64,000 nt of DNA, from positions 35,350,304-35,414,303 of the forward strand of contig NC_092671.1 in assembly GCF_964355755.1 (NCBI RefSeq), read 5' to 3'. Within the stretch, counting starts at the first letter, position 1; every line of letters starts with the position of its first letter. The position numbers and the translations under genes are program-made. The stretch is from Antedon mediterranea (lineage: Eukaryota; Animalia; Echinodermata). Below are positions 8,406-42,333 of the stretch, piece after piece. The notes beneath the pieces are model-generated. The model was not told the origin of the DNA and searched no databases. It saw only the letters and a list, made by a program, of their open reading frames with translations.

Positions 8406-9497
8406 ATTTGGATGTCGATAAACTAAATTATTATTTTAAAATGATAGCAAATGGGTAGGCTAGAAATCTCTCAAACCCAGCTAAAAACCAACAAGATTCA
8501 AGAAACACGTTTTGTTGGAAAGAGCTGCTGCATGCTGAGGGAGTCTTTTTTTTTTTATTCCAGCGCCCTCTAGAGTTCATAAAGGATTTTGTTATTTTTC
8601 ATTACCACCAAAAAGGAAAATTAATATACCAAGTGATCAAATGAAAAAAAACCCATTATGTTTTTAATCGTTTGTACTTATTTATTTGTTCTACAGTTCT
8701 ATTAAAATTATATACAATCATATAATTCTTATCCCTACTATTCAAAAAGATTTTTATAAAATGGAATAAAATAATAGGACTGTATTCCATGCACCAATGG
8801 TACAAATTGTTATTTCTATACAATCATTGTAAATATAGTATTATTAAACTGTATTAAAAAAAAAATAGAAAATAACAAATCAAAAAGAAAAAAAATCAAT
8901 TTGATATTTTAGAACCCTCACTCTGCTGGAAACATTTCCACCCAACCCCACATATTTCCTTAACCACACCCATGTAAAATTTAAATATAAATTATATATT
9001 TTATTAATAATTATTATGAAAGCACATGTAATTTGTAAAAATACACAATTCATAATTACTTTTTTACTCATTATCCTAAATATATCACTTATTGATCAAT
9101 CAATCAATCAGTATGACATCATTATTAACTAACAACCTCAACATTTACAGTGAAATATCAGTAATGATAGAGATATAATAAATCATTATCAAATTAATAC
9201 CAAAAAAATCACAGAAAGTAGTTATGCCTACTGTATAACCTTCAGAATTGTAGTTAAGTAATAAAAAAAAACAGAATTGAGTGTGTTAAAATTATGATTG
9301 TAAATCAAATAAAATAGGCATGTATACAAATCTAAAATGTTTTTTTTTAAATAAAATTAAAAGTGAAGAGTTCTAAACACCCACACATACAAGTTTTAAA
9401 AATAACAAACTAAAATTGCATAAAGTAAATTCAATACATCCAAAAACACAAGAAACAACTCTCTCTTTAAGCAAGAAATTGGAGGATACTTATATAT

Positions 9498-20800: not shown

Positions 20801-22749
20801 TAATTTTATTAAACTATGAAATACTTCTTGAAAACCAAATTCCAGAATTATTTCTTTTTTTTTCAAATATAAAAATCTTATATTTATATTAAACTATGCT
20901 ACACTATCCAAAATATAATCAAACTTTTTCTTTTAGTTTTATGAATTATGAAGCATACATTACTACTGTATTGAATGGAATGTATAGTTTTGGGGTTTTA
21001 ATTGGACCAACATAGCAGATGGGACTACCTTGGTTCAGGAAAAAAAATGATTGGTAAGCATTTCTTGTAAAATCTCATCTAATCTGGTTAGAGAGGCCTA
21101 CTGTACATCCAGACCAAAAGTCAATACTGGGACTATACCCGGGGACATGCCTGTTTGTGAAATCTGACATAAAGTAGGGGAGTGGGATTAGACCTGAAGT
21201 GGGATTAGACCTGAAGTGGGATTAGATCAGTAGAATAAAAATAGTATTGAAAATAAAGTACAGTACATGTTTAAGTGTTTAAATATTAAAAACCATAAAA
21301 TTCATCATTGTCAATGCCATAGGTAAACTTCAGACTCTTAACTTTAAACCACATGACCAGACGTATTTGACATTTAAAATGTTGGCAATAGTCAACTGAT
21401 TGGCAATTAAAATAATTTGTGACATCAAATGATTAGTGCATTTTCCTATGGATGGTCTGGTCAGATCATACTTTAATACACCCTCCCAATTCTTACTTAA
21501 TTTTGTTTTCTTTTTCTTTCTTTTCTTACGATTAATTATAGCTCTTCATAAAAATTCACTTGAATGCAAAATTATTGGTGCTGATATTCATTCATCCATC
21601 AATCATAAACATAGTGTTAATAAACTATTATTTTAAAAATATTTAATGATTGTTACAGATGCATTTGTGTATGTGCACATCCAAAGAGAAGAACACGCAT
21701 AAGTTGATCTGGGCCTCCATGGTTAAATGTGATTTATTTTTTGTGATTCTGATATTTTTTTTTACTCTTTAATTATTTTTAGGTCTAAAATTGTGAACAA
21801 GTTTTAAATAACTTGTAATTTTTGTATATATTGTTACTGTTTCATGTTTATCAACTTTTTAGGTTTTCATCTCTGTCAGTTGATTTAAAATAAAATAGAA
21901 TAACAATAAAAGTGAGTTGTATTCTTTTGCTGGACAAATTTGGTGAATGCATGGGTAATTCAAAATGTCAAAAGGGCAGGATATTAAACAAGTCTTGTGG
22001 CCATAACTGGAACCGCCCAATATTGTCCAATAGAAACTTGATGCAGTGATCAGGGATTACCATTACAAAAGATTAAGCAATCTTCATTTTATAAGAGGTC
22101 CTCAAACGTATTGTCCAAGCCTTCCACCAAAAACAATGGGATTTTAGGTAAGGTCAACTCAAACCCTTTTCTCACAACATGCTTAACAGAGTGCCTATAA
22201 CTAATTATAGGGATACGAGAAACAAGTCAAATTTGAGTACAAGAATTAGCTTTTAGCTAAATTTAAGTAGGAAAGATCATAGACTCTTGTATTTAGCTGT
22301 TTTCTTCAAAGAAGATAAAGTTGTATTGGCTGTACATAGGATTAAAATGATACAGACTATACTAAACATCATGTAAACATGATAATCTGTATTTAAATTT
22401 AATTTAAAATAAAGGATTAAAAAGAAGCCCCTAAAACCAAAATAAATAAAGATTCTTCCAACAAAACAGTACATAATACATAACAGTGTCTTAACATGTT
22501 ACAAATGGAATAATCCTGTCATTAACCAAGGGGTTCGAATAAACCTCCTTTTTATGAAGCGCCTTTTTCAAACTAGACGCAGCAGATATTTTTCATTTTG
22601 TCTTGAGGCACATGTGGCCAAGGATTACCAATAGTAAATTAATCACTGTCCTATCAGATAGGTAATCACCCTGATACAGTAACCCCCTACTCGTCTTGAA
22701 TGATGAACTGTGTTCTTTAAAGTGCACACAGGTTATAACTGTGTACACT

Positions 22750-22783
<34 letters not shown>

Positions 22784-25700
22784 TTGTTCCACCACCAGAA
22801 CTAGGAGCGAGTCAGCCTCGAACCCTTGCCGTTATAGTTGGCTCTTTAGGTACGGTAAATGGCTCCTGGACCATTTTGGAAAGCAGTACTGCGTTACTGA
22901 AAATGCAATCCAGTCAAAAGTAAGAATAAATAAATAAATAACGGCTCGGCCATTTGACTCACTCAGATTACTGTAGAATACTGTATACTGTATTGTATAG
23001 TGGCCTAACTAGTATAGATATGAGGATTTTTGTCAATACAGAAAAGTATCCTTTTTGTAGGGAAAAAAACTTGAACAATAAGATCCTACACAAAAATGTT
23101 GATATCATAGTATATTTTTGACATCTTTATTTCAACGTGACAATTAAATAGTGTGTCACAAACAAATTTACTCTTTCCAAAAAAATGTAGACTAGATCTG
23201 ACAGACCCAGACATCTAAGAGCTAGACAAGTGATTACCAAGAAGTTGGCCAACACAAGTTGACGGCATGGATCAAATACAAATAGAACACAAGCAGAATC
23301 TAAATATAGACATGATGTAAACAATATAAACAAAGACACATGTTGAAGATAAAATTAGCCTGTTCACAATTTTAATCTCCAGAGAGATTTAATCATGTCT
23401 ATACATGCAGTACAAAATTTACACTGAAAATTGAAAAATAGCAATGTAGTTGAGGGCGCATTTCATCTGTACTGTATTTTGCTGCCAAATTTTAAATCCA
23501 AAAAAAGGATTGGTCCATTAGACATCTGGGGTAATAAGCACAAAATAAATCAGTATGTAGTGTAATAGGAAGTACAGTATGTAAATAATAATAATAATAA
23601 TAATAATGCCTGAGTGTCCTTGAATAAATCATGGAATTTCATGAGCTATCCCAATGAATGAATGAATACTATTATATATGAGACGAGATTCCCGACGGAA
23701 TAACACTATTTAAGTAAATATTATGAGTAACCTTCTGTACAGAAGAGGAAGATGTATTATTATTCTTGGCCTAACAACCTTGTATGACAGAAGAATTCGA
23801 GGTGACCTGATTGAAGCATATAAAATTGTTAAAGGTTTCGAGGGTGTAGCCAAGGATGACTTTTTCCAAATGAGAAGTAACATTAGCAGAATTACTCGAG
23901 GGCATCACCTGAGATTTTTCAAGCCTACTTTCCATAAAGGATTGAACTGTAGAAGACATACCTTCTCGCAACGAGTAATAAACCATTGGAACAGTTTACC
24001 AGCCGACGTTGTCATTTCTGAGACCGCTAATACCTTCAAGAATCGCATCGACACAATGTAGTTGATATGGGGTTTAAAAAGGCACATCGCCTAAACTTTC
24101 CCATTATAACTAAACTAAACTAAACTAAACTATGAAAATTGTGCTTTGTTCTTTAATTCAACATTTTTGTTTAGATTTTAACCTTTTGGCTTATTTTATT
24201 TGTACCTTCATTAGGTCCAGCCAGCGATTTTTTTTTCGTACATAAGTTGGGGACCCCTTATTGGACAGATAGCCGAACTACTTTCTAAATATAACTAAAC
24301 CTAACCATCTAAATAATCTCTCTCACTCCAAAGTAAAAAGAAGTTGCTCATGGGATTTGAACCTCATACATCGACATTCCATAGTCAACTTGACCAAACA
24401 GACGGCTCAATTCTTACCTCATGGATATGACTAATTAATTTTTTTTTTTGACGTTTCATGAGGGGTCCCCAACTTATGTATGAAAAGAAATATCGCGTTC
24501 AGCCACTGATACCCAAAACATTGTAATTTTTTAGCAAAATGGCCATAGTTTGTTAAGGCTGACATGGCTATTTGTTAAAAATGTATAAAAATCTCTTTAG
24601 ACAGAAGGTGACAAGACACTAATTGAATATGACGTATTGAAAGTATATATCATATTTTCCGCTTTGCATGCTAAAAAACGGAAACACTCGAGAAAAGGTT
24701 AAACGACTGACCTCATTATCATAAACTTTTTCTCCGGACAAAATTATTTTTGAAATTTCCGGGAGTAAAAATAGTCTGGTAATTGATAGAAAGTGAAATT
24801 AAAGGAACTAAAATAAAGTTATATAATGATGGAAGTGTTTTTGTTATGTGACTTTATTCTAATTTGTAAAGAGGTCAAAATCATCTTTAAATTTTAAGCT
24901 GTTTTGGAAAGATGATTAATAAAAAGTAAATTAGTCAGGTCACCAGTAATTAATACTATCACTATTAATTAATAAACAAAGTTTAATAATAAATTAAATT
25001 TTGGCAAGAAAAAATTTTATTTTAAAATTTTGTTTAGCAATAATGCTAATCAAACTGATTTTGTTTAGCAATAAGGTTGTTTTTGTATAGCTTTTTGCTA
25101 TGCTACACTGGTGAAATTATTCCCTGTTTTTGTACAAATGTTTTTTGCTCTTAAATACAGTACATTTTATATTTTTAGGCAAGTTAAAGTTTACATTATA
25201 TTTTATAACCTTATCAATTTTTTTATATTTTTTTTTTTATTTTATTTTTAAAACCAGAAACAGCAGCAGAAACAAATCCGCCACTTACAGCTTGGTTTAA
25301 CAGATACAATACAATTACAACAACTCAGAAACACTTAAATTACGACGAAACAGATAAAGGTTGGAATTAAAAATGTCAATATGGGGATGGGCCTGCACTA
25401 AACTATTATAATATAAACTTAATCTGCTGATGTAACCATTTTTGAGAACATTGACTCTACAAAAGGGAACACAAAGGATATTGTTGTTTCTTAAATTACG
25501 GGCGGGAACACGAATACCGAAATTTGTCCTTTAATTAGACTTTGAGGGAAAATAATTAATTATTCATAGTGAGAAATAACAAAATTACCTTGGGTCCAAC
25601 TTTATTAGTACAATACATTTCTAGCTTTAATTTAACACAAAATTGATTTTCAGTATAATGATAGCAAAGGATTAGTATACAAGGACATGTAGATGAAGAT

Positions 25701-28700
25701 GGGCTAAAGACACAAATCAATATTCAAGGTTGACAATAATATTAATAGTAAATGCTATCTTATCATGTTTAATGTTTGCATGAAGCTCTGTCTACACTAT
25801 CAAACTTTATTTGAAAAAAAAAAATGTGATGTGCCCATATATGGAAATGATGATGTCATATCACTACCATATTTGGCACATCACACTTTTTTGTCAAACG
25901 ATTTTGATAGTGTAGACAGAAACTTTGAAAACAACAAGTATACACTGACATATATCTGCCACTGTCTCTTGAAATCGGTATCAGTGTTACAGTGCAATGT
26001 TCTCGACAATGTTCTAATATGAAAAATACAATCAATCAGTCTTTTGGAATAAAGCAGTATTTTTTTGTAGTATTGTCAATGCAACATTAACAAATAATAT
26101 ATACAGTGATATAGCATCAATGGTAGTTAGCCTTTTGGAATAAAGCAGTATTTTTTTGTAGTATTGTTTATGAAACATATTTGACAATGTGCTAATTAAG
26201 GATGAAACATAATTATTATCAATGGCTGTTATTTTTACCATATTATTTTCTATTCTACATAGGTTCAGTTATAATATCAGTAGGCCTACCAAAATGTTGA
26301 GAAACTCAACAGTTCTTTCAGAACTAAATATATGTGGTATACCACAAATTTTACATTAACATATCAAGCAAAACAGCAAACTTTTAAAACTAGAAATCAT
26401 TGTAAAATGCTCTACTAACAAGACGGACTAAAAAGTAAAGATTACTTTAAACCTTTCCCAGATATAAAGCTCTGTTCACACTTATCAAACTTTATATGAA
26501 AAAAAAAAATGATGTGCCTATGGATGTGATGTTATATCACTAGCGTATTTGGGTATATCACTACCATAATTGGGCACATTACAATTTTTTTTTCAAACTA
26601 GTTTGATAGTGTAGACAGATCTTAAGGCGAGTAGAGTAAAGCAGATTAACACAGTTAATGATGGACGTTACATTGGGTCAGTTAAATCAATACTTAAACA
26701 TTACAAGTAAAACCAAGTAATCCTACTGTTTTTCGGATTGTTGGATCAAAATATTATTAGAGAACTGTCCATTGAACAAGCAGATTACAACGGATAATGA
26801 TAAATGCTAGATAGTTAAACCTAATCAATATGTTACAGTTAGAGTTAGGTTGAGCGGGATATAGCATTGTAAAGTAGAGGTACAACAACAACAATAGGAT
26901 TACCTCTCAAGAATTAGTAGGTTGAAGTTAATGAGAAGTAATCCATGTTTTGTACAGTGTCTTAAGTGGTCGCCATAATATGGTATTACCTTGGTTGTGA
27001 ATTAAAGCTTTGTCCTTTTCCCTCCAAAACAAACGGAAGAGTAAGATAAAAAGTTGTTCTAGTTCTAGATGTTTTGTGGTTGTCTGGGTTTCATTTCTTA
27101 GTTTTACAATGTTACAAATAATTTAACTGTATTGTATCATGCTTGAAGTGAAACAAAATAAATATCAATATAAATTCTTCTTAAATTAAATAAGAGTAAT
27201 TCTACATTTTTTTCCAAATTATCTGGATCATGATTTCATGTATTGAGTAATGCTTGTTATCAGAACAAAATGTCTGTGGCATAATTTGACACAAGACCCC
27301 TCACTGATCATCATACATTGATATATTTTGTTAATGTTTTTATAAAAATTGTTTGTTACTTATAGTAAAATATAAATACAGATTTTGATAGATGATCTGT
27401 TGGTAAATCTAAATCTATAAAAATCAAACAAAATATAAAAAAAGAGCGAGCAATGTGCTGTTGGAATGATAATGTTATTAATGTTATTATTAATCACCTA
27501 AGGGTGGTTCCATAGACATTCTCATTTACATTTTATCATCTTTAAGTGGTATGTTCACAATTTCTAAAGGAACACAGATGGGTGTTGTTCTTTTTATCAA
27601 GTATATTTTTTAGTATTTTAGTATCTTTTAAACTATGGTATTTAATTTCTTCACACCTCTTTTAAAAATAACCTTGTTTCTTTTCAATTCATTTTGTTCA
27701 CACCTTATTGTCTTTCCTTTTGTCATATTCTAGGATGCATAATTTTACTAGAATATTGGTACTTTTAGTAAATTAGAACTATATATTAGTTTTATGCATA
27801 CTTTTTAACATTGGCCATAATATGATTTTTAAATGTATCCATTATATATTTTTTGTATTCTATTTGAAATGTAAAATATTGAAATACTGTAGATATAAAA
27901 AGATCCTAAGATATTAAATTTAAACTGAAATGTGTGCTTTAATTTATTATTTAATAATAATAATAATAATAATAATAATAGTAATAATGCTAGCATAGTA
28001 TTAAAAAGCTAATAAAATTGAATATATATAAATAAAAAAAAAAAAATGAAATTTTATTTTAAAGGTAATATGAATATGTAAAAAATGAAACTAATTTGGT
28101 AAGTTGCATTTTGTGGAAATATTTTTGTTCAATATATTTCATAAGATGAATGAAATTATTTCATAAAATGAATGAAATGCATGAAATATAATAATAAAAT
28201 ATAATATAATATAATATAATATAATAAAAAAAAATAAAAGTAATGATTTATCACAGTAGTACATACAATTTCTAACAGTGTCCTTAATTTTAAGAAATAA
28301 CATGTAAAAATATTAAAATAAAATCCATTTAAAGCCCCCTTCCCTACGTTTTTTAGATCTAATTTAAGATCACAAACTATATTTAATGTAAAAATAATAC
28401 TGTATGGTCCTATTGCGATACCTTTTTTCGTCTTTAAACGGTTAAAAATGTGAAAAATAAGTCGATTCTAATAATTATAGCGGCCCGCTATAATTCCCAA
28501 AATGCATTGTGCGCGGATTGATATTTTTGTTTTTCACCTGTAATTCACCCACTTTTCGCTCGATCGTGAGGCCAAAACAAATGGAAGACTCCTAACTTTT
28601 CAGCGAAAATACCGGGTTTTCCCCAATTTGTATCAACGGAGTCTGGCAAAAATAGAAAGACAATTAATGCAGCAACTACTGTATACAACGTCAGGCTAGG

Positions 28701-31700
28701 TATATAGCTAGCGTATGATGTTCGTACGTTACCGATGTTTACCAGCTAGGCCTACAAAACTAAGCCTAGCTAGGCTAGGCCTAAGACCGTCCACGAGAGG
28801 TCGATCGCCGCGAGCTACTTAGGTAGTGCATTGTTTCTCACTTTTTATCATAATTTACCATAAAACGTACATTTAAGACAAGGAATGACATGGTTTAATG
28901 TTTTTAAAGTGATATATATGTATTATTTTCCAAAAAACGTCCAAAATTGCAGGGAAGGGGTCTTTAAGTATTATATAAAGTACCTTGAGTGAATTTAAAC
29001 ATATCATATTACATATAATATTGCATTATTTAATATAATTTTATCATAAATGCCTATTATGCCAACATGAAAATAAAATATATTATATATATATTCTTTA
29101 AAAATCCATCAATTCAAATATATTGACCAAAAATAAGATGGAGCCATATTTAAAATGATTTAAAAGCATGGGAGGACCTAAGGTAAATATTACTTAGAGA
29201 AGTTGTGAATGGGTAAAAAGTTCACAAAAGGCATTCCATTGTACAGTGTAAAGAAAAGCCCCATGTCGGTTCACACTCAATTGTTTTCACAAATCCATTG
29301 TCATCAATTGTCAGCAGGGGAAACGAAAAGCTACCACCAGTAAAGACACAAGCCAATTTACAATAAGGTCCTTTTGTGTCACCTAGCCTTGTATCATTAA
29401 ACACACCCCTAAATTATTCATAGGGGTGTAAATATAAAGGCTGTGGGACACTTGTAGAGTCATTCAGTTCCTGTCCTGGTGGCAAGAAGGTTCTAACTCC
29501 ACAGTTGAGTTTTTTTGGTAGGAATTCTGAGAGGTGAATATCAGAGCTGAAGTTTTAACAGTGCATAGAGTAAGTACTTAGTGTTGTCTCAATTTACTTA
29601 GACTGTGTTTTTATGCTTGTACATCTTGTCAGATGTACTGTACCTTAAGTATGTATGTTGTATGTAATCTATATTGTAGTTGTTTGTACCACTCTCCAGT
29701 ATTTCTTAAGGACACTAACTAATGTATACATTGATGAATGTTTGATTACAAAACTTTAGAACATTAATTGCATGTTGTTTTAGGGTCTTTCACAGACCAT
29801 ATTTAAAGGGTTCAGTACCTCTATATAAAATTAATAGTAATTCTAAAATAGGACATCTTAATACACACTAAGCATTAAATATACTAAATTAATTCAGATT
29901 CGGCTAGACTTGATTAAAGGTACAACTATCTAATTTTTCTTAAAAATTACTAAGTAGTTATACATTGATTGAAGTTTAAATACAAAACTTTAGAACAGTA
30001 TATTGTCTGTTGTCTTTAGGGTCTTCCTCACACCATCTTTAAAAGGTACGGTACCTCCATATAAAATTGTTTTCTTAAAGTAGGATAGTTATATATTTCA
30101 TTTTATTACATGCTAAGCATTGAATATATTAAATTAATTCAGATTCGGCTAGACTTGATTAAAAGTACAAATTAAATTTGTCTACCATTTCATTACATAT
30201 AGCGAAAACACACTTAGACAAATTCAAACACATAAAACATCTATTTTAATTCTCAAATCATTTCTGTGTTGTCAAACATTAGGGAATAGATGATATTGAT
30301 AAAACCATTCTACATAATTAATATTAATTCTCTGCTTGGCTTATATTACTCTATCTAAAAGGTAAATTTAGCACGGCTGAACTTGATCCAGCCAGACAGA
30401 GCAGGAAAGAACTCTCAAAAGTCCACTAGACGAAAAAAAAAACAAAACTCGCAATTTAGAAATAGCCCAAGATTTCATCCTAACAAGTCATTTCCGAGTA
30501 CATTTTTATTTAAGTCTAGGTGACACGTTACTTTTTTTTTAACCAGACTAAAAAAATTGCAATATAAGTCTAGCTTTTTTCTTTAAAAAAATAATAATCT
30601 TACTCATATTTTGATTCAAGTTTGAGTCATTCTTTTGCAAAGTTTTTGGTAGTTATGAAAAAGTGATATGAATTGTAATGATTGGTTAGACATCTGGAAC
30701 GCAAAGGTAGTCTCAGTTGATTTAAATTGACTAAGGAACATCCTCTTTGCCCAACCCATCCACTATTATAGGAATCATCTAATTATAACACATCTCAGAC
30801 TTAACAATTATTTTATCACCTGATGACTGACAGTGACATGTACTTAATAGTTGGTTAAAACATTTATTAAATTCGTTAGGAAGTCTCAGTTCGCAAACAC
30901 CGTTTCAAAGAATTGCCAACCTGCTCCTATTCTCTAGAGGTCTCAACTTCCCGAATCATCACTGGTCATTTTGCGTATGTAGCATGTAATCCCGGGGGAA
31001 CAACACTTAATAATGTATGAATAAAAAAAACAAAAAGGACAAGATTGTCTAAGATAGTAGAGTGAATCACTGCACAGTAAGGACAGACAGATTTTAACCG
31101 CATTTAATTTGTCTTTTTTCCCTTTGACTCGCCCTCTAAACCCCGGGAGGAAACTTTGGATATTGCGCTTAATATCTGTTTTCTTATAGTTAAAGTGTTG
31201 AATTAAGCACTTGTGGCTATAAGAGCGGGTGACTTTAGACCACGGGACAAGACAATATAAATAGGCTACTACCGGGTGTCAAATGACAGAGGGGACGAAC
31301 TTTGATAGCAAAGACACGACTGAGCGTATACTGCTTGTAATATCTGGAGGATTAGAGACAATATGAATTTTCTACTAAGTATATTTGGGTAAGTTAGTTG
31401 TATACACTGGCTGGCTTTGTGTTGGGTCTGTGTACGTATGTGGGATACTTGGTATATGGTGTGTACACTTTAGTTTTTAGTACTGTTTGTTCTATTGTAT
31501 TGCATTAGAGGCACACAAGCAATGGTGGATGTGGCTAAGATATAGGCTATACAGTAGGTAAGTTGTACACTTTTGTAGCTTCCTAAGGTGTATGAGCTAC
31601 AAATATTAAGATATAAGTACTTAATTAATTATTTATTGTACCTTTAACCTATGCCCTTATAACACATTATGTGTATATATGATGTATCATGTATTATGTG

Positions 31701-34700
31701 TGTTAGACTTAGCCCCTCTAACATCTATCTATACAAAACCATATAGATAGTAGTAGTTAATTAATTATATGTATATTTATTTATTGTACCTTTAACTTAT
31801 GTCCACTATGTGTATATATGATGTATTATATGTGTTTAACCTTTAACCCCTATAATATCCATCTATAACAAACCATATGTAAGATTATATGTGATGACTT
31901 AATCAATAAACTTGATTTTATACAGGATATAGATTAAACACTAACTAGTGACTGTGGATTTAAAGAACTACGAAATGTAATTTTTCCGGTGATTCTTGGT
32001 TTTTGTAGAACAGCTCATGTAAAATCTATACCATGAGTTGTCCCACAAAGAACAAAAATCATTTAACAACAAATACTTGAGCAGTGGACAATACCTAAGG
32101 TGGAAATAACTTTTTCAGTTAGTGACTATATGGATTTAAAGAAATACTTATGTAATTTTTCCGGTGATTATTGGTTTTTGTAGAACAGCTCATGTAAAAC
32201 ACATAACGATGAGTTGTCCCACAAAGAACAAAAATCATTCCTTCGGAATAAAACGGATTTAACAACAAACCGGATACTCGAGCAATGGACAATAACTGAG
32301 ATGGCTTCAACTTTTTAATATTAATAATGATTTTTGGTTTTTGTAGAACAGCTCATGTAAAATCCATAACCATGAGTTGTCCCACAAAGAACAAAAATCA
32401 TTCCTTCAGAAATTGGATCAAGAACAACAAGACTATGCTTGCATTTAAACAGTGGATACTTAACCAAGATGACCTCAACATTTTAACAATGATTTTTGGT
32501 TTTTGTAGAACAGCTCATGTAAAATCCATGTCATGAGTTGTCCCACAAAGAACAAAAATCAATTGTTCAAGACAACATGATTCTGCTTTTCAAGACACAA
32601 TTGATATCAAGATTTATTCAAACAAGATGGCATTAATATTTTAACAATGATTTTTGGTTTTTGTAGAACAGCTCATGTAAAATCCATGTCATGAGTTGTC
32701 CCACAAAGAACAAAAATCATTTCTGCAGAAAATGGATCAAGAACAAACAACAAGACTATGCTTGCATTTAAAATGGATTTAAAAACCAACAAGCTACTCG
32801 AGCAATGGACAATACTACCAATATACTGTAACACCAACTTGTTAACAATGATTTCTGGTTTTTGTAGAACAGCTCATGTAAAAAAAATAACGATGAGTTG
32901 TCCCACAAAGAACAAAAATCATTCATTTGGTATAAAAATGGATTTAAAAACCAACAAGCTACTCGAGCAATGGATAATAACCAACATAGCATTAACTTTT
33001 TAAAAATGATTTCTGGTTTTTGTAGAACAGCTCATGTAAAATCCATACCATGAGTTGTCCCACACAGAACAAAAATCATTCCTTCAGAGAAGAAGATGGA
33101 ACTATTTTCAAAGACACTGGCAGTTAAATATTTACCAAGATTTATTCAACAAAGGTGGAATTAACTTTTTAACAATGCTTTCTGGTTTTTGTAGAACAGC
33201 TTATGTAAAATCCATGTCATGAGTTGTCCGACAAAGAACAAAAATCATTGTGAATTCATCAAGATTTTTGAAGAAGAAATGTAAAAGAATTATTGGTAAA
33301 GTGATATTCTCTCAAATGCAAAAACTAAAAGATTAAAATAATAACACTTGGTACAGTACTAATGAAAGCATATTATTCAATACTACTATTTAAAGATGTA
33401 TTTGTCCTCCAAAAACATGAAAAATAAAGAATTAAAAAAATCAGATTTTAAATAGGCCAATTTGCAGTTTTAATAATGTTATTCACTTCTGTAGACCAAA
33501 AATATAACAAAAATAATTATCTCACTTATAAAAAGAAAAAAGAAAACCAATGTCTGACAGACAATTTAGGTATTTTTTGCTTTAAATTAGTTATTTTCAG
33601 GAAAATATTTTTTGAATAACTATTATGTGTCATTAAAATAATGTTTGTAGGGGAACAAAATATCTTATATATCTATAAATCATAAAAGCAATAAATAAAA
33701 TGTTTTGTGTAATCTCTTTTATACATTAATGAGAAAACAATTCTTAAATATCCTTTAGTTAAACAAGTTTTAGTTCAACGAACAATTTCTATGACAACTC
33801 ACAACAATAACCTTTCTTCTTGGTATGCATAACAAGACATGTGTATTTCAATGCTAAATTCTTAAAACCCCGCCAAGTTTTACCATCCAATGGTGACCTC
33901 AACACACAGGCATTGAGCACTGTGAATCATCACACCCTATTGTTGAAAGGTTACACAATGGGAACATGTTTGCCTCCTAGGTTTTAGTCTGCACAATAGA
34001 CTTATAAAATAAAACCATTATAAAGGAATTGTTTGGATTAAGATATTGAATGCAAAAAAACTTGTTGCACAATCCAGCTATAATGAGCATCATTTATCAT
34101 CACCTAGGTAACTGTACATTATTATGATTACATCATAGGGTTTGTTTCTGCTGCATTGCGCCGAATAAACCGTTTTTGTTTCTAAATAGATTTAAAATGT
34201 AATTTTTATAGTGACTGCATTTCGACTAAATTTTTACTCCAAAATAACCATTTAAATGAGTGGGTGGTCGTTGACAGAAATCGTTAGCATTACCCGAAAT
34301 GCAATTGGTCCTGGCGGTTAATTCAAACGTTACTGCAGTGTAGGTGACTCGAGGTCAATCAAATAACAGTTATTTTGTGTTGTAGCTAAAAATTGCCCAG
34401 TAATAACTGATTAAATGGTTGTTCTAACTTCTAACAACAAACTGAATGTTATTTTTGCGCTGCCATTGAGTACCAGTTACCGGTACTCAAAAATTGTCCT
34501 GTTTCTGCTCCTAAGAAATTGGGGTTAATTTATTCAAACCGTTTTTTTTTATCCAGCAGAAACAGGACAATAGATAAAGTTCCAGCTGAGCTCTTACAAA
34601 ACGAAGGTTAAAAACTCATTATTCCCAAAGACAAATGTTTAGGTTGTTTACTTGGACACTACTCAAAGGTTGACCAAGCTAGCTAACTGTGCGTTTATTA

Positions 34701-37700
34701 ACTTAAGTTCAACTATTGAGGGCAGCAAACAGAAATTTATATAATTATGTACAGTCAACTATATTTTGGAATAGATAGGATGAGTGTACAGTAAAAGAAT
34801 GAAATATTGTACTAAAATATATCAGCTGTCAATTGAATGTTCTTTAGCTACTTTTTGATGTTAAATACTTTTACTTTAAAACATTGCAGAACTCACGGTG
34901 GTCAATTAGACAATCACTGGCAGCCAATGTTCATGTATACACTGAGCAAATTATTTCACAATCTTTAAATCTTTGTCTACACTATCAACTTTATGTGACC
35001 AAAAAATGTGATGTGCCCATATATGGGCATGATTATGTCATATCAGTACCATATTTGGGCATATCACTACCATATTTGGGCACATCACACTTTTTTTTGT
35101 TAAACTAGTCTGATAGTGTGGCTTAGTGTGTGACGCTGGATTAAAGATTGTGATGTCGTGGTTCGAATCAAACTCTCCCGCACATGCTTGTATTCTTATT
35201 AGGCAAGACACTTTACTTACATTTGCCTCTCTCCACCCAGGTGTATTAAATGGGTATCCAGTTAGATCAAGACACAACTTTGCACTGATTACTAGCTGTC
35301 TTATGGGAGTATGTTTCCGTAAGTGTTTGATCCAAAAAATGATCGGGGTAATAATGCTTTTAAATAAATGTGGTATTATTATGTGGTATTATTAGTTATC
35401 CGCTTAGTAGCGGATAACTCCTTGTAACTGTATGAAATCATCTTTTTTTTTTTTTTCTGTATTATTCTTTCTTTCTGTCAATTTTGTGTCTCGCGTATCT
35501 CAAAAACTTAAACAAAACATTTTATAACTTTGTCAACATGTGGGCATTCACGTGAAATTGTGCACCTCCTATTGTGAATGACGTCAGAATTGCGCAACGT
35601 GATTTACGCGCGTTTTAACGAATTTCGCGTATTTAACATAGATCGAAAACCATATAGCAATTTAAATTGAAACTTAACAAAAGTTTAATTTATATCTTGC
35701 GCTAACTGACTGTGGAAAAAAATGGCATGTTTCACACGAAGTTACGCGCGCACGGGCGTTTAAAATTTCAAAATGCGAAAAATCAATTTCTAATCAACTT
35801 TCTACGCGTTTCATGTCATTTTGAGCATGTCAAAAATTCCTACGCGCGCGCATATTTTTACTCGCACGGTGCGCACGTGGCATTGAAAATAAATTTTTTT
35901 CGCGTGATTCATGTTTTTCCAGCCTTTTCTAGTAATTTTACCAACTTTTGAACAATTTTGACCTAAAATTACGTCGTACGGGCACATCCAATTGGATAAT
36001 TTACGTGCGTTTTTGATGAAAAAGTTCAAAAATTTAATTCGTCAAAATTATGCCTTTTTTTAAACATTCATAGATTTTAAACTACGAGGTGAACTTTTTT
36101 TAAATTATATATTTTGGAAGTTGATGAGTTGTAGATATGGAATCATGCATTAATATGGGTAATCGGACATTATAACGTCATCGTATGGCCACGCGAATAT
36201 AAAATATAGGATTTTTATATCTTTCGTCATAGCGCATCACATTTAATAGAGCGCATCTCCACTTATCCGTTTTTTATTTTCACCCCGATTTTGATATTGT
36301 CTAGGTGAATGAACTATCTTTCGCATGAGTTAAAAATATTTTAATTTTTATGACGTCATCATGTCTAAAAATGTAAATAACGTGGGTCAACTATTTTCAT
36401 CTTTACAGTAACTTTCAATCTGTTATAGCTCGTCAGAATAAAATGTGATAATCATGATTAAAACGTTTTCTGGAAGCTATTGAATTGTAGATACGAATTC
36501 ATGTAAACATTTTGCCAATCGGATGTTGTGACGTCATCATATGGCCAGTTGAATAAAAAAAAGGCGTATTTTCATATTTTGCGTAATAGTTCATCACATT
36601 TAAAAGGGCGCGCATCTATATTTTACGTATTCAAATTTCTTCTACACGTTAATATGTGGTTGCTGAGATAATTTCCTTCCAAAATTACTACTGTACCTTC
36701 GCGTTTCCTTTTGAAAATTAAAATAAAATACGGGTCCCGTAATTTCACCTATTTTACACTGTTTGTGACATGTATACAGATTATACTGTGTATACTATAT
36801 GACAGAAAATATACAGCATTCAGCACTAACAACATATCATATTCTTCAGTTCAGGTCATAATGACATAATCTTTTTCGGTGTGCAATATTCCAACGTATG
36901 ACGTGCACGTGGCGTTTGTCGTGCGGATAACTAACTCGTCAAAGTGACGAGTTTCATGTCTAGTTATTATAGTGTGTTTACTGAGCTTTAGAAACAAATC
37001 AATTGACTTACCACGTTCCAGAAGACAGGAGTTAAAAAGATACATATGATAGTAACGTAAATATTGACATCTTTAAGGTCAATGAACTGTGATGTTCCCA
37101 TCAGGAATGAAACATCAACCTAATAATATATAAAAATGTACACAAAATATGAAAAACAATACAAATTTGACAAAAATATCATATTTTTCGTGGCTAATAG
37201 TAGTACCAGACCAATTGTAATCATGTTAAAGGGCCAACTGAGACAAGTTAATATTAGGTTGGTCCTCATTTTGTTGTTGAATTTAAACGTAAAACCTCCT
37301 TGCCTGTAGGGCACCTTTATTGAATGAGGTGTAAAATGAACATGGGGCAATAAATGTTGCAGTTCAGTTTCATTTCACACAACATTACATTATATATACA
37401 TTTATACTTATAAATAAATAATAAAACATTGTGTATGGAGATTACAATAAGCCATAATGGCTTTCTGAACTTCCAGATAAAACAAACAACAAATATGGTG
37501 ATATATAGGTATTTATTCATAAAAAGTACAAACAGGTGCATTGCAAAATCTACTTAATGAGTCCAGATAACCAAAAGAAACAATAAAAAAAATCAACATT
37601 TATATCTTTTACGATTTATTTACAAAGTGTGTTTACTAGAAATGTTTGCAATTTGCCAGACTTTGCCAGAAAACTCAATACGTAAATTTTGAGATGCACC

Positions 37701-37925
37701 TGTGACGTCACAGTAATTTACGGCAACGACGAGAGTGTGCGGCAATATCCTTAATTTCGCAGAGGTTCTGAAATCATATGTACATCAATAATACGTTGTT
37801 AAAATATGGTCCTCGGTCAAGTTGTCCTTTAAACGTGGAGGCCTGTATACTACCTTATCTAAATCCAGATTGCCAAATCCGTCACAGCAAGACAGAATTT
37901 TCTTCCTGTAATCAGTCTGTTGCAT
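11837..37925 (-). CDS. PEMT: Phosphatidylethanolamine N-methyltransferase, about 231 aa
   Basis: Exons 37925-37854 ([24 protein letters not shown]), 37119-37012 ([17 protein letters not shown]...TPVFWNV), 14033-13918 ([18 protein letters not shown]), 13462-13314 (LGFTGTFF), 12859-12748 ([31 protein letters not shown]), 11975-11837 ([11 protein letters not shown]...[13 protein letters not shown]). All introns are GT-AG with consistent phases, and the motifs match human PEMT. Confidence 0.96.
13098..13237. mobile_element. MITE family A copy
   Basis: Both TIRs present. Confidence 0.9.
13560..13736. mobile_element. MITE family A copy, left tip replaced, with a 21-bp insertion
   Basis: Family body sequence; right TIR intact. 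Confidence 0.88.
14520..14650. repeat. 20-bp tandem repeat (CAGAGGAGGACACCCACATT), about 6 copies, inside a Tc1-like MITE remnant
   Basis: Direct reading; the element ends GGTTCTACTGTA near 14714. Confidence 0.9.
16791..18018. repeat. 23-bp GC-rich minisatellite, about 53 copies
   Basis: Unit GGATGCACCCTAGCGCTACCCCT with recurring variants. Confidence 0.98.
18020..18872 (+). mobile_element. 5'-truncated L2/CR1-clade LINE (C-terminal ORF2 plus 3' UTR)
   Basis: 243-aa ORF with [64 protein letters not shown]; ATT-rich tail. Confidence 0.93.
19701..19885. mobile_element. MITE family A copy with three 20-bp units
   Basis: Both TIRs, TAA flanks. Confidence 0.9.
20268..20547 (+). mobile_element. 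tRNA-derived SINE family 2
   Basis: B-box-like ATTCGAATCC, core CTCTCCACCCAGGTGTATAAATGGGTACC, tail CGCTATATAAGAATGAACTATTATT; copies at about 35115-35357, 62978-63272 (-), and a 3' part at 4305-4470. Confidence 0.82.
23765..24131 (+). mobile_element. CR1 LINE 3' fragment
   Basis: [36 protein letters not shown]; (TAAAC)n tail. Confidence 0.9.
24224..24497. mobile_element. Inverted-repeat element with internal B-box
   Basis: IR TACATAAGTTGGGGACCCCT / AGGGGTCCCCAACTTATGTA; internal AAACCTAACC and GGATTTGAACC. Confidence 0.7.
25783..25924. mobile_element. MITE family A copy
   Basis: Both TIRs present. Confidence 0.88.
28329..28967. mobile_element. TTAA-flanked MITE (Kolobok-like)
   Basis: TTAA|AGCCCCCTTCCCT...AGGGAAGGGGTCT|TTAA. 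Confidence 0.78.
29403..29470 (+). promoter_or_regulatory. Candidate Pol II core promoter of the miRNA host transcript
   Basis: TATAAA at 29433-29438; Inr-like TCATTC/TCAGTT at 29460-29469 about 30 nt downstream; inverted repeat ACACCCCTA-N9-TAGGGGTGT at 29403-29429; GTAAGT donor at 29570. Confidence 0.6.
31990..32061 (+). ncRNA. mir-2009: pre-miR-2009 hairpin copy 1
   Basis: Hairpin; mature-like arm starts at 32034. Confidence 0.85.
32165..32237 (+). ncRNA. mir-2009: pre-miR-2009 hairpin copy 2
   Basis: Hairpin; mature-like arm starts at 32210. Confidence 0.85.
32327..32401 (+). ncRNA. mir-2009: pre-miR-2009 hairpin copy 3
   Basis: Hairpin; mature-like arm starts at 32373. Confidence 0.85.
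32485..32567 (+). ncRNA. mir-2009: pre-miR-2009 hairpin copy 4
   Basis: Hairpin with extended basal stem; mature-like arm starts at 32534. Confidence 0.85.
32647..32720 (+). ncRNA. mir-2009: pre-miR-2009 hairpin copy 5
   Basis: Hairpin; mature-like arm starts at 32692. Confidence 0.85.
32848..32922 (+). ncRNA. mir-2009: pre-miR-2009 hairpin copy 6
   Basis: Hairpin; mature-like arm starts at 32894. Confidence 0.85.
33006..33079 (+). ncRNA. mir-2009: pre-miR-2009 hairpin copy 7 (A15C variant)
   Basis: Mature-like arm at 33051 reads TGAGTTGTCCCACACAGAAC. Confidence 0.82.
33172..33251 (+). ncRNA. mir-2009: pre-miR-2009 hairpin copy 8 (C11G variant)
   Basis: Mature-like arm at 33220 reads TGAGTTGTCCGACAAAGAAC; the 5' arm has a C>T change that keeps pairing as G-U. 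Confidence 0.82.
35391..36965 (+). mobile_element. Non-autonomous Helentron/DINE-1-like element
   Basis: 5' TTAGTTATCCGC followed by its partial inverse GCGGATAACT; 3' GCGGATAACTAA (36923-36934), hairpin AACTCGTCA-AAG-TGACGAGTT and terminal CTAGT; CpG-rich body with an internal duplication. Confidence 0.75.
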
Positions 37926-38077
37926 TGATAACTGAAATAAAATGAGAATTTAAAATTCTGCCAACCAGCTGGTCAAACAAATCGGTATTTAACTTTGTAT
38001 ATGAATACTGTGAGAAAATGTATTATTCATACTATTCTAGGTCATTTTAATTTCTTTGGTTACTAAAAATAGTTGAT

Positions 38078-39830
38078 AAAATGTGCATATTTTGATTATT
38101 TTTATACAAAAAATGAATATTTTGTAGCGTAATTGTTATGTTTATTTATATAATATTAAATAATTTAAGTGTTTGGAAAAACTATTTGGTATCAAATGAA
38201 AGCCCACAAAATATTCTATCCATTACTAAATACTACCCAACTTGTATTAAAAATCTGTAATTATGATGCTAATTTTGTTAAAAATGTGCATATTTTATAT
38301 TTTTTTTTACTAAAATGAGTATATTAAATACCGTACTGACGCGGGTATAAGCCCATCCCCCTTGAACATGAAATCACGTCAAGTTTGGGGGGTGGGCTTA
38401 CACCCGAGGATCCAAAAATGCAGATCGTCAAAAACAGCACATTTACACTGTGTATTCCACCATGCGAGCGAGCGCCCTCACGTGTACGACGTTGCCTCTA
38501 AATACACGAGGTGTAGAGTGTCGGAAATCAATCTTATAGTTTGTGTAATTTATTGTAGAATATCTTATTTTAAACATCAATTGAACAAGAATTTATCAAG
38601 CAGAAAAGCAAGTATACAATGTTCGTTAAATAGAAATGTACCAAAGAAATTTAATAAGCTTGTTTATGGCAGCCGATACCAAATAGTGGTTTTCTGTTTT
38701 GGCGACTTGTAGCGTCGTGTGTGAAGCGATCTTCGACCGCGATGGAGTGTAAACAAAACAGGACCGCTAGGCCTCATATGGCCTAGAGTATATTAGCCTA
38801 GCTTGGTTATGATCAAAGATAGGTGTATTCGGTGCATGGACGTCGCCAAATACTGTACAAAATAATGTATTACGACACACACTGTAGATCTTCGAATTAA
38901 TGGGTGGGCTTTTACCCGAGTGCCTCATTTTTCATGAAAATTAGTCAAAAGTCGGGGGTGGGCTTATACCCGAGTATGTGCTTATACCCGCGTCAGTACG
39001 GTAGTGTAAATTTATTCTGGTTTATTTATAATATTAACTAATTCAAGTGTTCTTTTGGTATCAAATTGTTCAAAATATACATATTTATATTCGGTCTAAC
39101 ACAACTTTTAGCGAAAAAAATGACCAGAAATGCTTTTACTGACTTTTTACCCAAAAATGACAAAAAATAATACACAATATGCTACCTATTTTCCATACAA
39201 TTAACTTCATAATTAAAAATTCTCAATACAAGTTGGGTAGCATATTGTGTAACTGTATGCTTTCCTTTGATACCATACAGTTTGTTCATTTGGAATTTTA
39301 AAGAATAATTCAAAGGTCACTTGAATTATTTAATATTATAAATAAACCAAAATAAATTTACACTATTTAATATACTCATTTTAGTAAAAAAATAATAAAA
39401 TTTTAAACAAAATTAGCATCATAATTACAGATTTTTAAAACGAGTTGGGTAGCAATGGATAGAATATTTTATGGGCTTTCATTTGATACCAAATAGTTTT
39501 TCCAAACACTTATATTATATAATAAACATAACAATTACGCTACAAAATATTCATTTTTTGTATAAAAATAATCGAAATATGCACATTTTCCATACAATTA
39601 GATTCATAATTAAAAATTCTCAACACAAGTTGGGTAGCATATTGTGTATGCTTTCATTTAATACCATACAGTTTGTCCATTGGCATTTTAAAGAATAATT
39701 TAACCTGAAAATGTGTTTTTGGGTCATTTTTGGGTCAAAGGTCTGTAAAAGCATTTCCGGTCATTTTTTCGCTAAAAGTTGTGTTAGACCGAATATAAAT
39801 ATGTATATTCTGAACAATTTGACACCAAAG
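38078..39830. repeat. Foldback-like complex of long inverted repeats
   Basis: 38078-38330 plus 39002-39050 is the reverse complement of about 39316-39590; about 39050-39160 is inverted at 39715-39830. Confidence 0.8.
38331..39001. mobile_element. pogo/Tc1-mariner-like MITE
   Basis: TIR CCGTACTGACGCGGGTATAAGC with TA TSD; the empty site is visible in the inverted copy of the flank near 39360. Confidence 0.88.
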
Positions 39831-40384
39831 GTAAATCTGTACGACAAGTGGTTGTCGAGATTAAGAACATTTTTAACCTTTGACCGCGATTTTGGGCATG
39901 TTCGTCCCGGATAGCAAATTTAGCACACATTTCATGTTGTTCGTTGGGGCCAAATTAACAGTTGAGATATTCTCTCCTAAAATAAATGCATACAAATCTG
40001 ACCCAGGTCCTAGACTATAAATAACTAACGGTTTAGCTTTAGATTTTTGGCCCGCCCTTGTTTTTTTTAAAACAAATATTTTATGAAGAAATGCGCCTGA
40101 CAATGACAAAGAAAAAAATCACTTCAAATCATGCACGGTTATCGTTACTGGTGTTTTCAAAGATCATTTGCTTGTAATAATAAGGTATTATTGTTAAAAT
40201 GCATCATGTTATATTTTGTCCTTTTTGGAGTTTTATGAATTTGGTCGTTCCGTAACCGGCGGCCGAAATGCACTGTGACCAGGCCCTCTCCCCTGCTTTA
40301 CCTTTATCTTACTAGCCTAGGCCAACCTAGAGCTCTATTTAGGCTAGCCTAGGCCTAACCAGCAGGTGGGAGGGGTAGGCTAGC

Positions 40385-41449
40385 CGATTTCGATCCAAGT
40401 CGGCCCTAAACCGTCTTGGCCAAAGTCAAGTCGGCCCCAAGTCAAGTCGGCCCCAAGTCAACTCGGCCTCAAGTCAACTCGGTCTCAAGTCAACTCGGCC
40501 AAAAAATAATCAGTCAACTCGGCCCCGTTAAAGTATGGAATGCAAAAGTTGCAAAGGAAGGGGATTGATAAAATAATTTATCTTCACATTTTTTTACCTA
40601 TGAATAATTCTGACTTTTAATGAATATTAATATTTAGACAATAATACATTAGCAAAAAAAATAAGAAGGATTTCACCAACTTTCCTTTATTTACGTTTAA
40701 TAAAATTTCAAATTGCACAAATTGTTCTGAAATTGCGCATACAAACAATTGATTAATAAGCTAGCATTCATACTATTGTTAATGATTACGATATAAACAC
40801 ATTGTAGGCCCAATAATGATGATGCACGTACGTAGGCACGTATGTTCGTTCGTGCGTCAAAATTCAATAAACATTTCCGATATGCGAGGACATTTATTAG
40901 GTGTAATAAGATTGTTTGGTTGGATTGTTTGGTTGAATCATTGAGGTATTAAATAATGTTAACTCCATGGTTGAATCACGCGTAGATTTCTTCAGTGTAT
41001 GCATTTGATTAGGCGACAACATCTGTAACCAATTCGTAACTGCGCCTCCCTGCGCCTTTGGCAGCTATTTCGATATTACAACTGCTACGTGTTTTCGCTG
41101 ACCGGGGATTCCCCTTTTTTTAAAACGCAAATCATGGACAAAAACGGTGTGTACGATCATTTTTCTATGGCCAAATAGTGGAACCATGGAGCTATAACAG
41201 CTTCATGGTGGAACGTAGGCCTACGTCTTCGATTTACTAAAATGTGGTACGGTACCTGCACGTGTTTTTGTAACACGCGAGTACTTCTATTCATATCGGC
41301 AATGTGCGTTCCATACTTAATTATGGCCGAGTTGACCGATTAGTTTTTGGCCGAGTTGACATGAGGACGAGTTGACGTGAGGCCGAGTTGACGTGGGGCC
41401 GACTTGACGTGAGGCCGAGACGGTTTGGGGCCGACTTGACCTGCACCCG
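40385..41449. mobile_element. Non-autonomous DNA transposon with 17-bp subterminal repeat arrays
   Basis: (AAGTCAASTCGGCCYC)n at the left, inverted array at the right; GCTAGC on both sides. Confidence 0.85.
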
Positions 41450-41455
41450 GCTAGC

Positions 41456-42333
41456 CGGTTTACGATGAAATCGGTCGCGATAAAATCAACTTCCGGTATT
41501 TTGTATGGCGCGCCGCTAGAGCTATACGTTTGAAATCGGTCGCGCTATTTTGTATGGAGCGAGATGCATGCTAGCGGGATTTACATTTTCTTCGTTTATA
41601 TAGTCTAGATTTAATTGATATTTTTTAGGAACCAGATTATTTATGTGGATATTTTTTATTTTGGTTAATAAATATTTATTATCAATCATTTTTTTTTTAT
41701 TTCACAGGTCTCGGAGAAGGACTGTATCTTTTCAAAATGGCCATTTCTAAACACGTTTAAATATTTTATTAGGCATATAATAATTTACCTCTATTTTATT
41801 ATGTACTGTAATTAATATATTATACTGTATAGGAAATATACGTCTGTGTCTTTTAATAATATTATGCAAACAATTACGTAAAAGAGAACAATTTACGTAT
41901 ATACGTCGGCGATACTATAGTTTTTAATTTGAATATCTTTTATTTGTTCATTTATAATAATCACTTAATGTGTCTCACATCCGTACGCCGTTCGTAAATC
42001 TAAATGTTTAAATATCAAGGTGCAAGATTACCTCTTTGAGAATCGTGCCCACCTTTTAATATCCATCCATTATTATTCTCACATCTAGGCCTATCATTGT
42101 ACAGCATACTGCATAGTCCTACTGTATAGGCCCGGTGATTTATAACGGCATATTATTTTATTAGTATTCACTATTATCCTAAAACCATGCTCACGTAAGA
42201 GTGGCGGATACCCATGCAAAATAGCGCTACCGATATCATTAAACGTATAGCTCTAGCGGCGCGCCATACAAAATACCGGAAGTTGATTTCAAACGCGACC
42301 GATTTCAGACGCGACCGATTTCATCTGACACCG
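41456..42333. mobile_element. Non-autonomous DNA transposon with about 75-bp TIRs
   Basis: GATGAAATCGGTCGCG...TTCCGGTATTTTGTATGGCGCGCCGCTAGAGCTATACGTTT and its inverse at 42240-42326; GCTAGC on both sides. Confidence 0.87.

Follow-up and report, generated by a model that had tools for sequence, protein, structure and literature searches.

The 64,000-nt stretch of Antedon mediterranea DNA analyzed here (contig NC_092671.1, positions 35,350,304 to 35,414,303 of the forward strand; hereafter the window) carries a plus-strand array of eight hairpins inside an intron of a PEMT-like gene that is read from the minus strand. This arrangement raises the question of whether the array is transcribed as a gene of its own and, if so, where its transcript begins and how it is processed. 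An earlier, sequence-only reading had described a TATA-driven non-coding pri-miRNA gene with the hairpins in its last exon. The plus-strand cluster, its nesting, its need for transcription of its own, and the TATA/initiator match were supported in the present analysis, while the proposed exons and poly(A) site did not rise above chance.

Identity and strand of the hairpin array

The array is composed of eight mir-2009 hairpins arranged head to tail on the plus strand (31986-33251) at a spacing of about 160-200 nt. All eight matched the Rfam family RF03590 (mir-2009) over its full length (model positions 1-83 of 83), with plus-strand scores of 53.1-72.4 bits and E values of 1.4e-10 to 2.4e-16. 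The gathering score of 90 bits was reached by none of the eight, nor by any match in the whole window, and a scan of the window at E<=0.01 identified no family other than the mir-2009 array matches. Hairpin 1 (31986-32065; 3p arm at 32034-32054) scored 67.1 bits (E 9.1e-15) with a predicted fold of -25.5 kcal/mol (z -4.6), and hairpin 2 (32165-32241; 3p 32210-32230) had the lowest score, 53.1 bits (E 1.4e-10; -23.7 kcal/mol, z -4.19). Higher scores were observed for hairpins 3 (32324-32404; 3p 32373-32393; 72.4 bits, E 2.4e-16; -29.1 kcal/mol, z -7.46), 4 (32486-32566; 3p 32534-32554; 71.4 bits, E 4.6e-16; -31.2 kcal/mol, z -7.77), and 5 (32644-32723; 3p 32692-32712; 70.4 bits, E 9.4e-16; -29.9 kcal/mol, z -6.34). 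These were followed by hairpins 6 (32845-32925; 3p 32894-32914; 63.9 bits, E 8.2e-14; -23.8 kcal/mol, z -4.54), 7 (33003-33082; 3p 33051-33071; 65.8 bits, E 2.2e-14; -22.3 kcal/mol, z -4.26), and 8 (33172-33251; 3p 33220-33240; 71.8 bits, E 3.5e-16; -24.1 kcal/mol, z -3.68). The plus-strand folds thus ranged from -22.3 to -31.2 kcal/mol, and for each hairpin none of 200 shuffled sequences was as stable.

Both the Rfam alignment and the mapping of the arms assign the mature RNA to the 3' arm. When compared with the mature spu-miR-2009 sequence, taken from a table in PMC4669494, the 3p arm of the array agreed at 22 of 23 positions, the seed among them. Its 21-nt core (positions 1-21) is identical in six copies, the exceptions being hairpin 7 (A>C at position 15) and hairpin 8 (C>G at position 11), and the 23-nt 5p arm is identical in seven, with a C>T change in hairpin 8. 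The mean pairwise identity was 0.893 among hairpins and 0.599 among spacers, which points to a constraint on the hairpins. The occurrence of six identical 3p copies amid diverged spacers argues more specifically for selection on the 3p RNA.

On the minus strand, the same model scored 29-47 bits, leaving an excess of 16-31 bits (about 25 on average) for the plus strand. Folding energy was also considered as a test of strand and was dropped, since the minus-strand hairpins (-19.0 to -33.5 kcal/mol) are as stable as their plus-strand counterparts or more so in seven of the eight copies and the energies cannot choose between the strands. As read from its sequence, the array is thus supported as a true plus-strand microRNA cluster of the mir-2009 family. 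Among the papers searched on mir-2009, Antedon, and crinoid microRNAs, where crinoid loci were judged by title, no description of this array was found. The one metagenome locus that matched the 21-nt 3p-arm pattern was rejected as a chance match, as it had no Rfam hit at E<=0.001 and looks like ordinary coding DNA.

Nesting within PEMT and a probable separate transcription unit

The PEMT-like protein of A. mediterranea (P0001) was mapped with tblastn to six minus-strand exons at 100% identity. Exon 1 (37851-37925) encodes amino acids 1-25 and exon 2 (37012-37119) amino acids 25-60, the latter bounded by a TTAG acceptor and a GTAAGT donor. Exons 3-6 lie within 11840-14033, in tblastn pieces at about 14033-13917, 13464-13306, 12860-12747, and 11974-11840, whose inner boundaries are approximate. 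The PVFWNV|IARWE motif across the junction of exons 2 and 3 is conserved in a mollusc PEMT, and the array is flanked by these two minus-strand exons, which have canonical splice sites. The exon map confirmed that the array is nested opposite to PEMT, wholly within the 22,978-nt intron 2 (14034-37011). In the miR-2009 orientation the array cannot be derived from PEMT pre-mRNA, and a separate plus-strand Pol II unit can therefore be soundly inferred. Transcription by Pol III is unlikely, because the array contains 18 runs of at least five T. The further suggestion that the array gene interferes with the transcription of PEMT is conjecture.

A Pfam search over 146 ORFs of at least 50 aa found no recognizable plus-strand exon upstream of the array in the window. 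Among ORFs overlapping 29225-33672 on either strand (minimum length 38 aa for the minus and 50 aa for the plus strand), no family was found, and there is a weak indication that the predicted host unit lacks protein-coding potential.

The sequence-only reading had recognized no dispersed repeat family in 29200-33350, and a self-BLAST agreed, with no dispersed intra-window match in 26633-33387. Its description of the surroundings as full of repeats was borne out in part: 22 of 30 bins of 22001-42000 had very deep contigs, whereas only 12% of the window had a dispersed match elsewhere in the window. The repeat-free block is bordered on the right by a dispersed repeat copy (33388-33639) that is 67-75% identical to five further copies in the window. 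On the left it is bordered by a possible transposon of about 1 kb (28120-29135) with 32-nt inverted ends that are 81% complementary, a region covered by very deep contigs over 28004-29337. Four sequencing runs over 22001-42000 appeared to be genomic, as unique parts had a flat, low depth, repeats were very deep, and contigs were collinear over 29569/29570 and 31925/31926. In three DNA runs, baseline-depth coverage by single contigs extended over 28961-29900 and over 30319-32025. Two tandem duplications upstream of the array (29725-30170 and 31609-31829) show that changes are tolerated in part of this block.

Candidate core promoters and the predicted start of the transcript

The array is probably read as a polycistronic Pol II primary transcript from a promoter of its own. 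In the proposed mechanism, Pol II would read the eight plus-strand mir-2009 hairpins as one transcript, from which Drosha and Dicer would release up to eight copies of the miR-2009 3p RNA. The promoter would most likely be located within the repeat-free 2.85 kb or so upstream of the array, the foremost candidate there being the TATA-initiator pair at 29433-29466.

This candidate (promoter A, predicted, plus strand, 29433-29493) includes the TATAAA at 29433-29438 and the initiator some 30 nt downstream that had been noted earlier; both are present. The initiator consists of two overlapping matches, TCATTC with its A at 29462 and TCAGTT with its A at 29466; counted from the T that opens the TATA box, these adenines lie 29 and 33 nt downstream. 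A DPE-like GGTTC (29489-29493), sought post hoc, lies at +28 of the 29433/29462 pair. The composite TATAWA+TCAKTY+RGWYV occurred once in 128 kb of strand, at this site, and Markov simulations gave an expectation of 0.013 per 64-kb strand. These motifs were defined in studies of Drosophila and human. For a TATA box with a strict initiator but no DPE requirement, the expectation is 1.7-1.8 per 64-kb strand, or about 0.08 in the 3 kb upstream of the array. TATAAA alone occurred 1.21 times per kb per strand, and TATAAA followed by GTRAGT at 60-300 nt occurred 11 times on the plus strand and 10 times on the minus strand of the window. By motif, the 29433/29462 pair ranks first among the core-promoter matches of the window, and its surroundings are nearly CpG-free (o/e 0-0.15). 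A transcript start at 29462-29466 is tentatively favored from these motifs, and a start elsewhere within 29136-31985 is a lesser possibility.

A start farther upstream carries a comparable, modest likelihood. The array would then belong to a long plus-strand transcript begun outside the repeat-free block, perhaps within a transposon or from a distant promoter upstream of 29000, and the TATA motifs near the array would be coincidental; this explanation also has a limited chance of being correct. It is consistent with the chance frequency of the local motifs, the triple composite excepted, and the repeats that flank the block could bring promoters. In addition, the plus-strand exon scan covered only ORFs of at least 50 aa. 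However, that scan recognized no upstream plus-strand exon in the window, FAH and PEMT, the two genes upstream, are both read from the minus strand, and the TATA/initiator/DPE-like composite is unexpectedly rare.

A promoter close to the array appeared to be rather unlikely. Candidate promoter B on the plus strand is a second TATA box, TATAAATA (31256-31263), which lies just 730 nt before hairpin 1 and matches TATAWAWR, although this consensus is common (0.96 per kb per strand) and neither a YYANWYY nor a TCAKTY initiator was found at +26 to +33. A transcript starting about 25-32 nt past this box would be about 2.2-2.5 kb long and either unspliced or with small introns removed through one or both of two downstream GTAAGT donors. 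The first of these (31389-31394) matches 7/9 consensus positions. The second, at 31558, matches 8/9 (TAG|GTAAGT) and follows a candidate 49-nt mini-exon (31509-31563 with the donor) whose acceptor G at 31508 is preceded by 13/19 pyrimidines. Within the block, CpG is most abundant at 30801-31300 (o/e 0.76), the patch that holds candidate B, but this value is below the 90th percentile of the window (1.09; median 0.50). CpG o/e was dropped as a promoter mark, as it showed no peak at candidate A or B.

Possible minus-strand products and the proposed exons

The remaining explanations concern the use of the minus strand and the exact structure of the transcript. An array without any plus-strand expression is improbable, and so is a two-way array. 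In the latter, the plus-strand TATA/initiator would yield miR-2009, the minus-strand hairpins from the PEMT intron would yield antisense miRNAs with other seeds, and the outputs of PEMT and miR-2009 would be coupled by convergent transcription over 1.3 kb. It is even more doubtful that there is no independent gene at all, with the hairpins cropped solely from the minus-strand PEMT intron or the array a silent relic. The minus-strand hairpins necessarily lie within PEMT pre-mRNA, and their stability in seven of eight copies would suit such a source. In contrast, the Rfam scores, the conservation of the 3p copies relative to the spacers, and the match of the plus-strand 3p arm to a sequenced sea-urchin miR-2009 all favor the plus strand.

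An independent plus-strand unit, the preferred reading, may have other exons than those first proposed. The GTAAGT donor, the acceptor, and the AATAAA signals 3' of hairpin 8 are all present on the plus strand. The donor (29570-29575) lies 108 nt downstream of the predicted start, the acceptor AG (31924-31925; ATACAG|G) ends 61 nt ahead of the Rfam start of hairpin 1, and an overlapping AATAAA pair (33690 and 33694, within 33690-33699), a candidate poly(A) signal, is followed by the GT-rich stretch TGTTTTGTGT. However, such motifs are frequent in the window: GTRAGT occurred 0.47 times and AATAAA 2.21 times per kb per strand, and the donor matches only 7/9 consensus positions. The acceptor, with 10/19 pyrimidines, is poorer than all five PEMT acceptors (11-14 of 19). 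On the plus strand, 565 of 929 YAG sites (8.8 per kb) are at least as pyrimidine-rich, and 24 sites within 29576-31990, itself included, score at least as high. In addition, the candidate exon at 31509-31557 is better formed, and an AATAAA already occurs past hairpin 8 at 33423-33428, within the dispersed repeat. Hence, despite the composite at its proposed start being unique in the window, the exact predicted model (start at 29462-29466, exon 1 to 29569, intron 29570-31925, a final exon with all eight hairpins, and polyadenylation near 33710) is highly improbable, its donor, acceptor, last exon, and poly(A) site being indistinguishable from chance motif occurrence.

Significance and comparison with known systems

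The mir-2009 family is already known in echinoderms, and the crinoid eight-copy array is an added member. Crinoids are sister to every other echinoderm class, so miR-2009 was already there when the living echinoderms began to diverge, provided that the cluster is expressed in the predicted way. Under the same proviso, miR-2009 would have been amplified eightfold in the lineage sampled here, and the 4.4-kb repeat-free block would be a compact test case for what drives an antisense intronic miRNA gene in a non-model deuterostome. The array leaves the current picture of miRNA biogenesis unchanged. There are many antisense-intronic miRNA clusters that have promoters of their own, and the arrangement of the array is ordinary for microRNA clusters.

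Several known systems share individual features with this locus. BIC/MIR155HG is a spliced, polyadenylated non-coding miRNA host gene with an exonic hairpin, and the sequence-only model resembles it in being a Pol II non-coding unit with a TATA-type promoter, a short exon 1, and hairpins in the last exon. In contrast to the single hairpin of BIC, the array has eight, and its exons are predicted from DNA sequence. The Drosophila mir-iab-4/iab-8 locus is a sense/antisense miRNA locus; the array units likewise form stable hairpins on both strands, and, provided that the gene model is correct, their minus strand is transcribed within PEMT, whereas the sole known mature sequence for the array belongs to the plus strand. 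Zebrafish miR-430 is a same-family tandem array, and the copies of the Antedon array are similarly near-identical paralogues from tandem duplication, although only eight in number. No promoter in each unit of the miR-430 type was found in the array, where the spacers share no TATA-type motif and a lone TATAAA occurs at 32931. The polycistronic miR-17~92 cluster (MIR17HG) likewise has several hairpins, and those of the array, about 160-200 nt apart, presumably also share one primary transcript. The closest relative is spu-miR-2009 of Strongylocentrotus purpuratus (RF03590). The two have a common hairpin architecture in which the 3' arm carries the mature RNA, but the Antedon locus belongs to a crinoid and comprises eight tandem copies, which score 53-72 bits, below the gathering threshold.

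A mir-2009 Cluster on the Plus Strand

The array is a real eight-copy mir-2009 cluster, located antisense within intron 2 of the phosphatidylethanolamine N-methyltransferase (PEMT) gene of a crinoid. The composition profile described the window as AT-rich animal DNA (GC about 0.32), in which eight head-to-tail hairpins occupied 31986-33251 of the plus strand. A 24-nt piece of the hairpin 5' arm had eight matches in the window, seven exact and one with a single mismatch, and none of 100 shuffles contained a match. A search of Rfam at gathering thresholds returned no match anywhere in the window. Under E-value reporting, all eight hairpins matched the full length of the mir-2009 model (RF03590) on the plus strand, with E-values from 1.4e-10 to 2.4e-16 and scores of 53.1-72.4 bits, which lie below the gathering score; the minus strand of the same eight sites scored 29.5-47.1 bits. 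Rfam gave no match besides these hairpins in the whole window at E ≤ 0.01. The plus-strand hairpins were predicted to fold at -22.3 to -31.2 kcal/mol each (z -3.7 to -7.8).

Position Within PEMT

On the minus strand, 318 stop-to-stop ORFs reached 38 aa or more, and Pfam domains were searched in 300 of them, ORFs beyond 61186 being excluded; on the plus strand, all 146 ORFs of at least 50 aa were searched. The scan identified exons of fumarylacetoacetase (FAH; 1295-8435, minus strand), exons of the PEMT domain (11840-13506, minus strand), and exons of the MYCBP-associated protein MYCBPAP (48831-52361, plus strand). The genes of the window were hence ordered FAH(-), PEMT(-), and MYCBPAP(+).

One PEMT exon query was 100% identical to a 231-aa Antedon mediterranea protein (P0001), named phosphatidylethanolamine N-methyltransferase-like by NCBI, which assigns the window to this crinoid or to a source that cannot be told apart from it. 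This protein was mapped by tblastn to six minus-strand pieces at 37925-37851, 37119 to about 37012, 14033-13917, 13464-13306, 12860-12747, and 11974-11840. Exon 2 was bounded by a TTAG acceptor and, at 37011, by a GTAAGT donor. A TTTCAG acceptor at 14034 preceded exon 3, and the motif across the junction of the two exons (PVFWNV/IARWE) is conserved in a mollusc PEMT. Based on these splice sites and the conserved motif, intron 2 was delimited to 14034-37011 (22,978 nt). The sequence-only reading had described the array as nested opposite to PEMT, and the exon map and splice sites confirmed this, with the array inside intron 2 on the other strand.

Intron 2 also included a minisatellite at 16800-17990 (GC 0.62), in which a 24-nt GATGCACCCTAGCGCTACCCCTG-like unit is repeated about 50 times; this minisatellite accounts for the GC spike of the composition profile. 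When compared with the window at 13917-14042, the Anneissia japonica PEMT isoform X2 (P0002) began with another short N-terminus, attached to exon 3. In crinoids, the large intron may hence contain a further first exon of PEMT together with a promoter; a counterpart of this N-terminus was not located in the window. Just past the PEMT 5' end (37925), initiator (Inr) and DPE-like matches occurred together on the plus strand at 38044 and 39288. Six such matches were seen in the window versus about four expected, and these two could represent a divergent promoter region or chance.

A Repeat-Free Block Around the Array

The earlier observation that dispersed repeats are missing from 29200-33350 held over a longer interval, as self-BLAST found no dispersed intra-window match in 26633-33387. 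In three DNA runs, 28961-29900 and 30319-32025 were each covered by single contigs of baseline depth, and the bins 28004-29337 and 33340-34006 included very deep contigs; these depths were read qualitatively only, and summed contig depth does not equal copy number. An inverted pair of 32 nt at 28120 and 29104 suggests a putative transposon of about 1 kb ending at 29135. Upstream of hairpin 1, the block continues for about 2.85 kb, and past hairpin 8 it ends after only 137 nt, an asymmetry that is compatible with functional upstream sequence but no proof of it. Two local tandem duplications, at 29725-30170 (period about 245 nt) and 31609-31829 (period about 140 nt), were observed upstream of the array, both within the intron proposed by the sequence-only reading.

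Probable Independent Transcription of the Array

Because the strand that yields miR-2009 is antisense to PEMT, the PEMT pre-mRNA cannot supply it. No plus-strand coding exon was recognized upstream of the array in the window by Pfam among ORFs of at least 50 aa. The array contained 18 runs of at least five T on the plus strand, and RNA polymerase III is stopped by such runs. Taken together, these observations make an independent plus-strand Pol II transcription unit a well-founded inference for the array.

Antisense hairpins may conceivably be cropped from the PEMT intron on the minus strand. Read on that strand, the hairpins at 31986-33251 folded at -19.0 to -33.5 kcal/mol and were more stable than the plus-strand versions in seven of eight copies, and folding energy therefore cannot assign the strand.

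For the independent plus-strand unit, a TATA-driven, spliced gene at 29403-33700 had been proposed, with the hairpins in its last exon, and all of its motifs were recovered at their positions on the plus strand. Two strict Inr matches, TCATTC at +29 and TCAGTT at +33, came after the TATA box at 29433. TATAWA and TCAKTY pairs occurred at five loci in 128 kb of strand, with 1.7-1.8 per 64-kb strand in simulations. Relative to the first Inr, positions +28 to +32 read GGTTC, which fits the DPE-type motif RGWYV; the chance of this match given a TATA/Inr pair was about 0.034 (RGWYV frequency 0.0168 per position). The resulting triple was unique across both strands of the window, with 0.013 expected per 64-kb strand. 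Its rarity raised the estimate for this start site from unlikely to tentative, and no higher, because the DPE search was post hoc, made once the TATA/Inr site had been seen, and because the core-promoter motif definitions originate from fly and human work. A start at 29462-29466 is the best single candidate, predicted from these motifs as possible rather than probable. The surroundings of the 29433 site were nearly CpG-free (observed/expected 0-0.15), which was counted against it. The ratio reached 0.76 in the patch that holds the alternative box, TATAAATA at 31256, versus a window median of 0.50, and a consensus Inr at canonical spacing from this box was absent.

At this base composition, most of the proposed motifs were uninformative, with rates per kb per strand of 1.21 for TATAAA, 0.34 for GTAAGT, 0.47 for GTRAGT, and 2.21 for AATAAA. 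TATAAA was followed by GTRAGT within 60-300 nt 11 times on the plus strand and 10 times on the minus strand in 64 kb, and two of the 11, namely 29433 to 29570 and 31256 to 31389, preceded the array. The donors at 29570 and 31389 each matched the consensus at seven of nine positions, and the donor at 31558 at eight of nine. The candidate acceptor at 31925 had 10 pyrimidines out of 19, with scores of 11-14 among five real PEMT acceptors. At least as good were 565 of 929 plus-strand YAG sites, and 24 sites between 29576 and 31990, the proposed one included, scored as high or higher. The earliest AATAAA past the array (33423) was within a dispersed repeat (33388-33639) that recurs at five further places in the window. 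On motif statistics, the predicted splice pattern, the proposed position of the hairpins in the last exon, the candidate poly(A) site, and the conjectured interference with PEMT were indistinguishable from chance.

Within 31363-31557, a short ATG-initiated frame started at 31363 and continued into the GTAAGT sequence that forms the donor at 31389. When it was joined by eye to a candidate mini-exon at 31509-31557, a stop came after only some 20 codons, and the frame gives no indication of a coding gene.

Comparison With Known mir-2009 Sequences

The mir-2009 family is not known from outside the echinoderms. Compared with the Rfam consensus, the crinoid 5p arm carried a G-to-A change, which weakens pairing on the plus strand and would stay a G-U pair on the minus strand. 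Mean pairwise identity was 0.893 among the hairpins versus 0.599 among the spacers; constancy is kept in the hairpins and not in whole repeat units. A 21-nt core of the 3' arm was identical in six of the eight copies, and copies 7 and 8 each had one change in this arm, outside the seed. Relative to the mature spu-miR-2009 sequence given in a table of PMC4669494, the hairpin 3' arm was identical at 22 of 23 positions.
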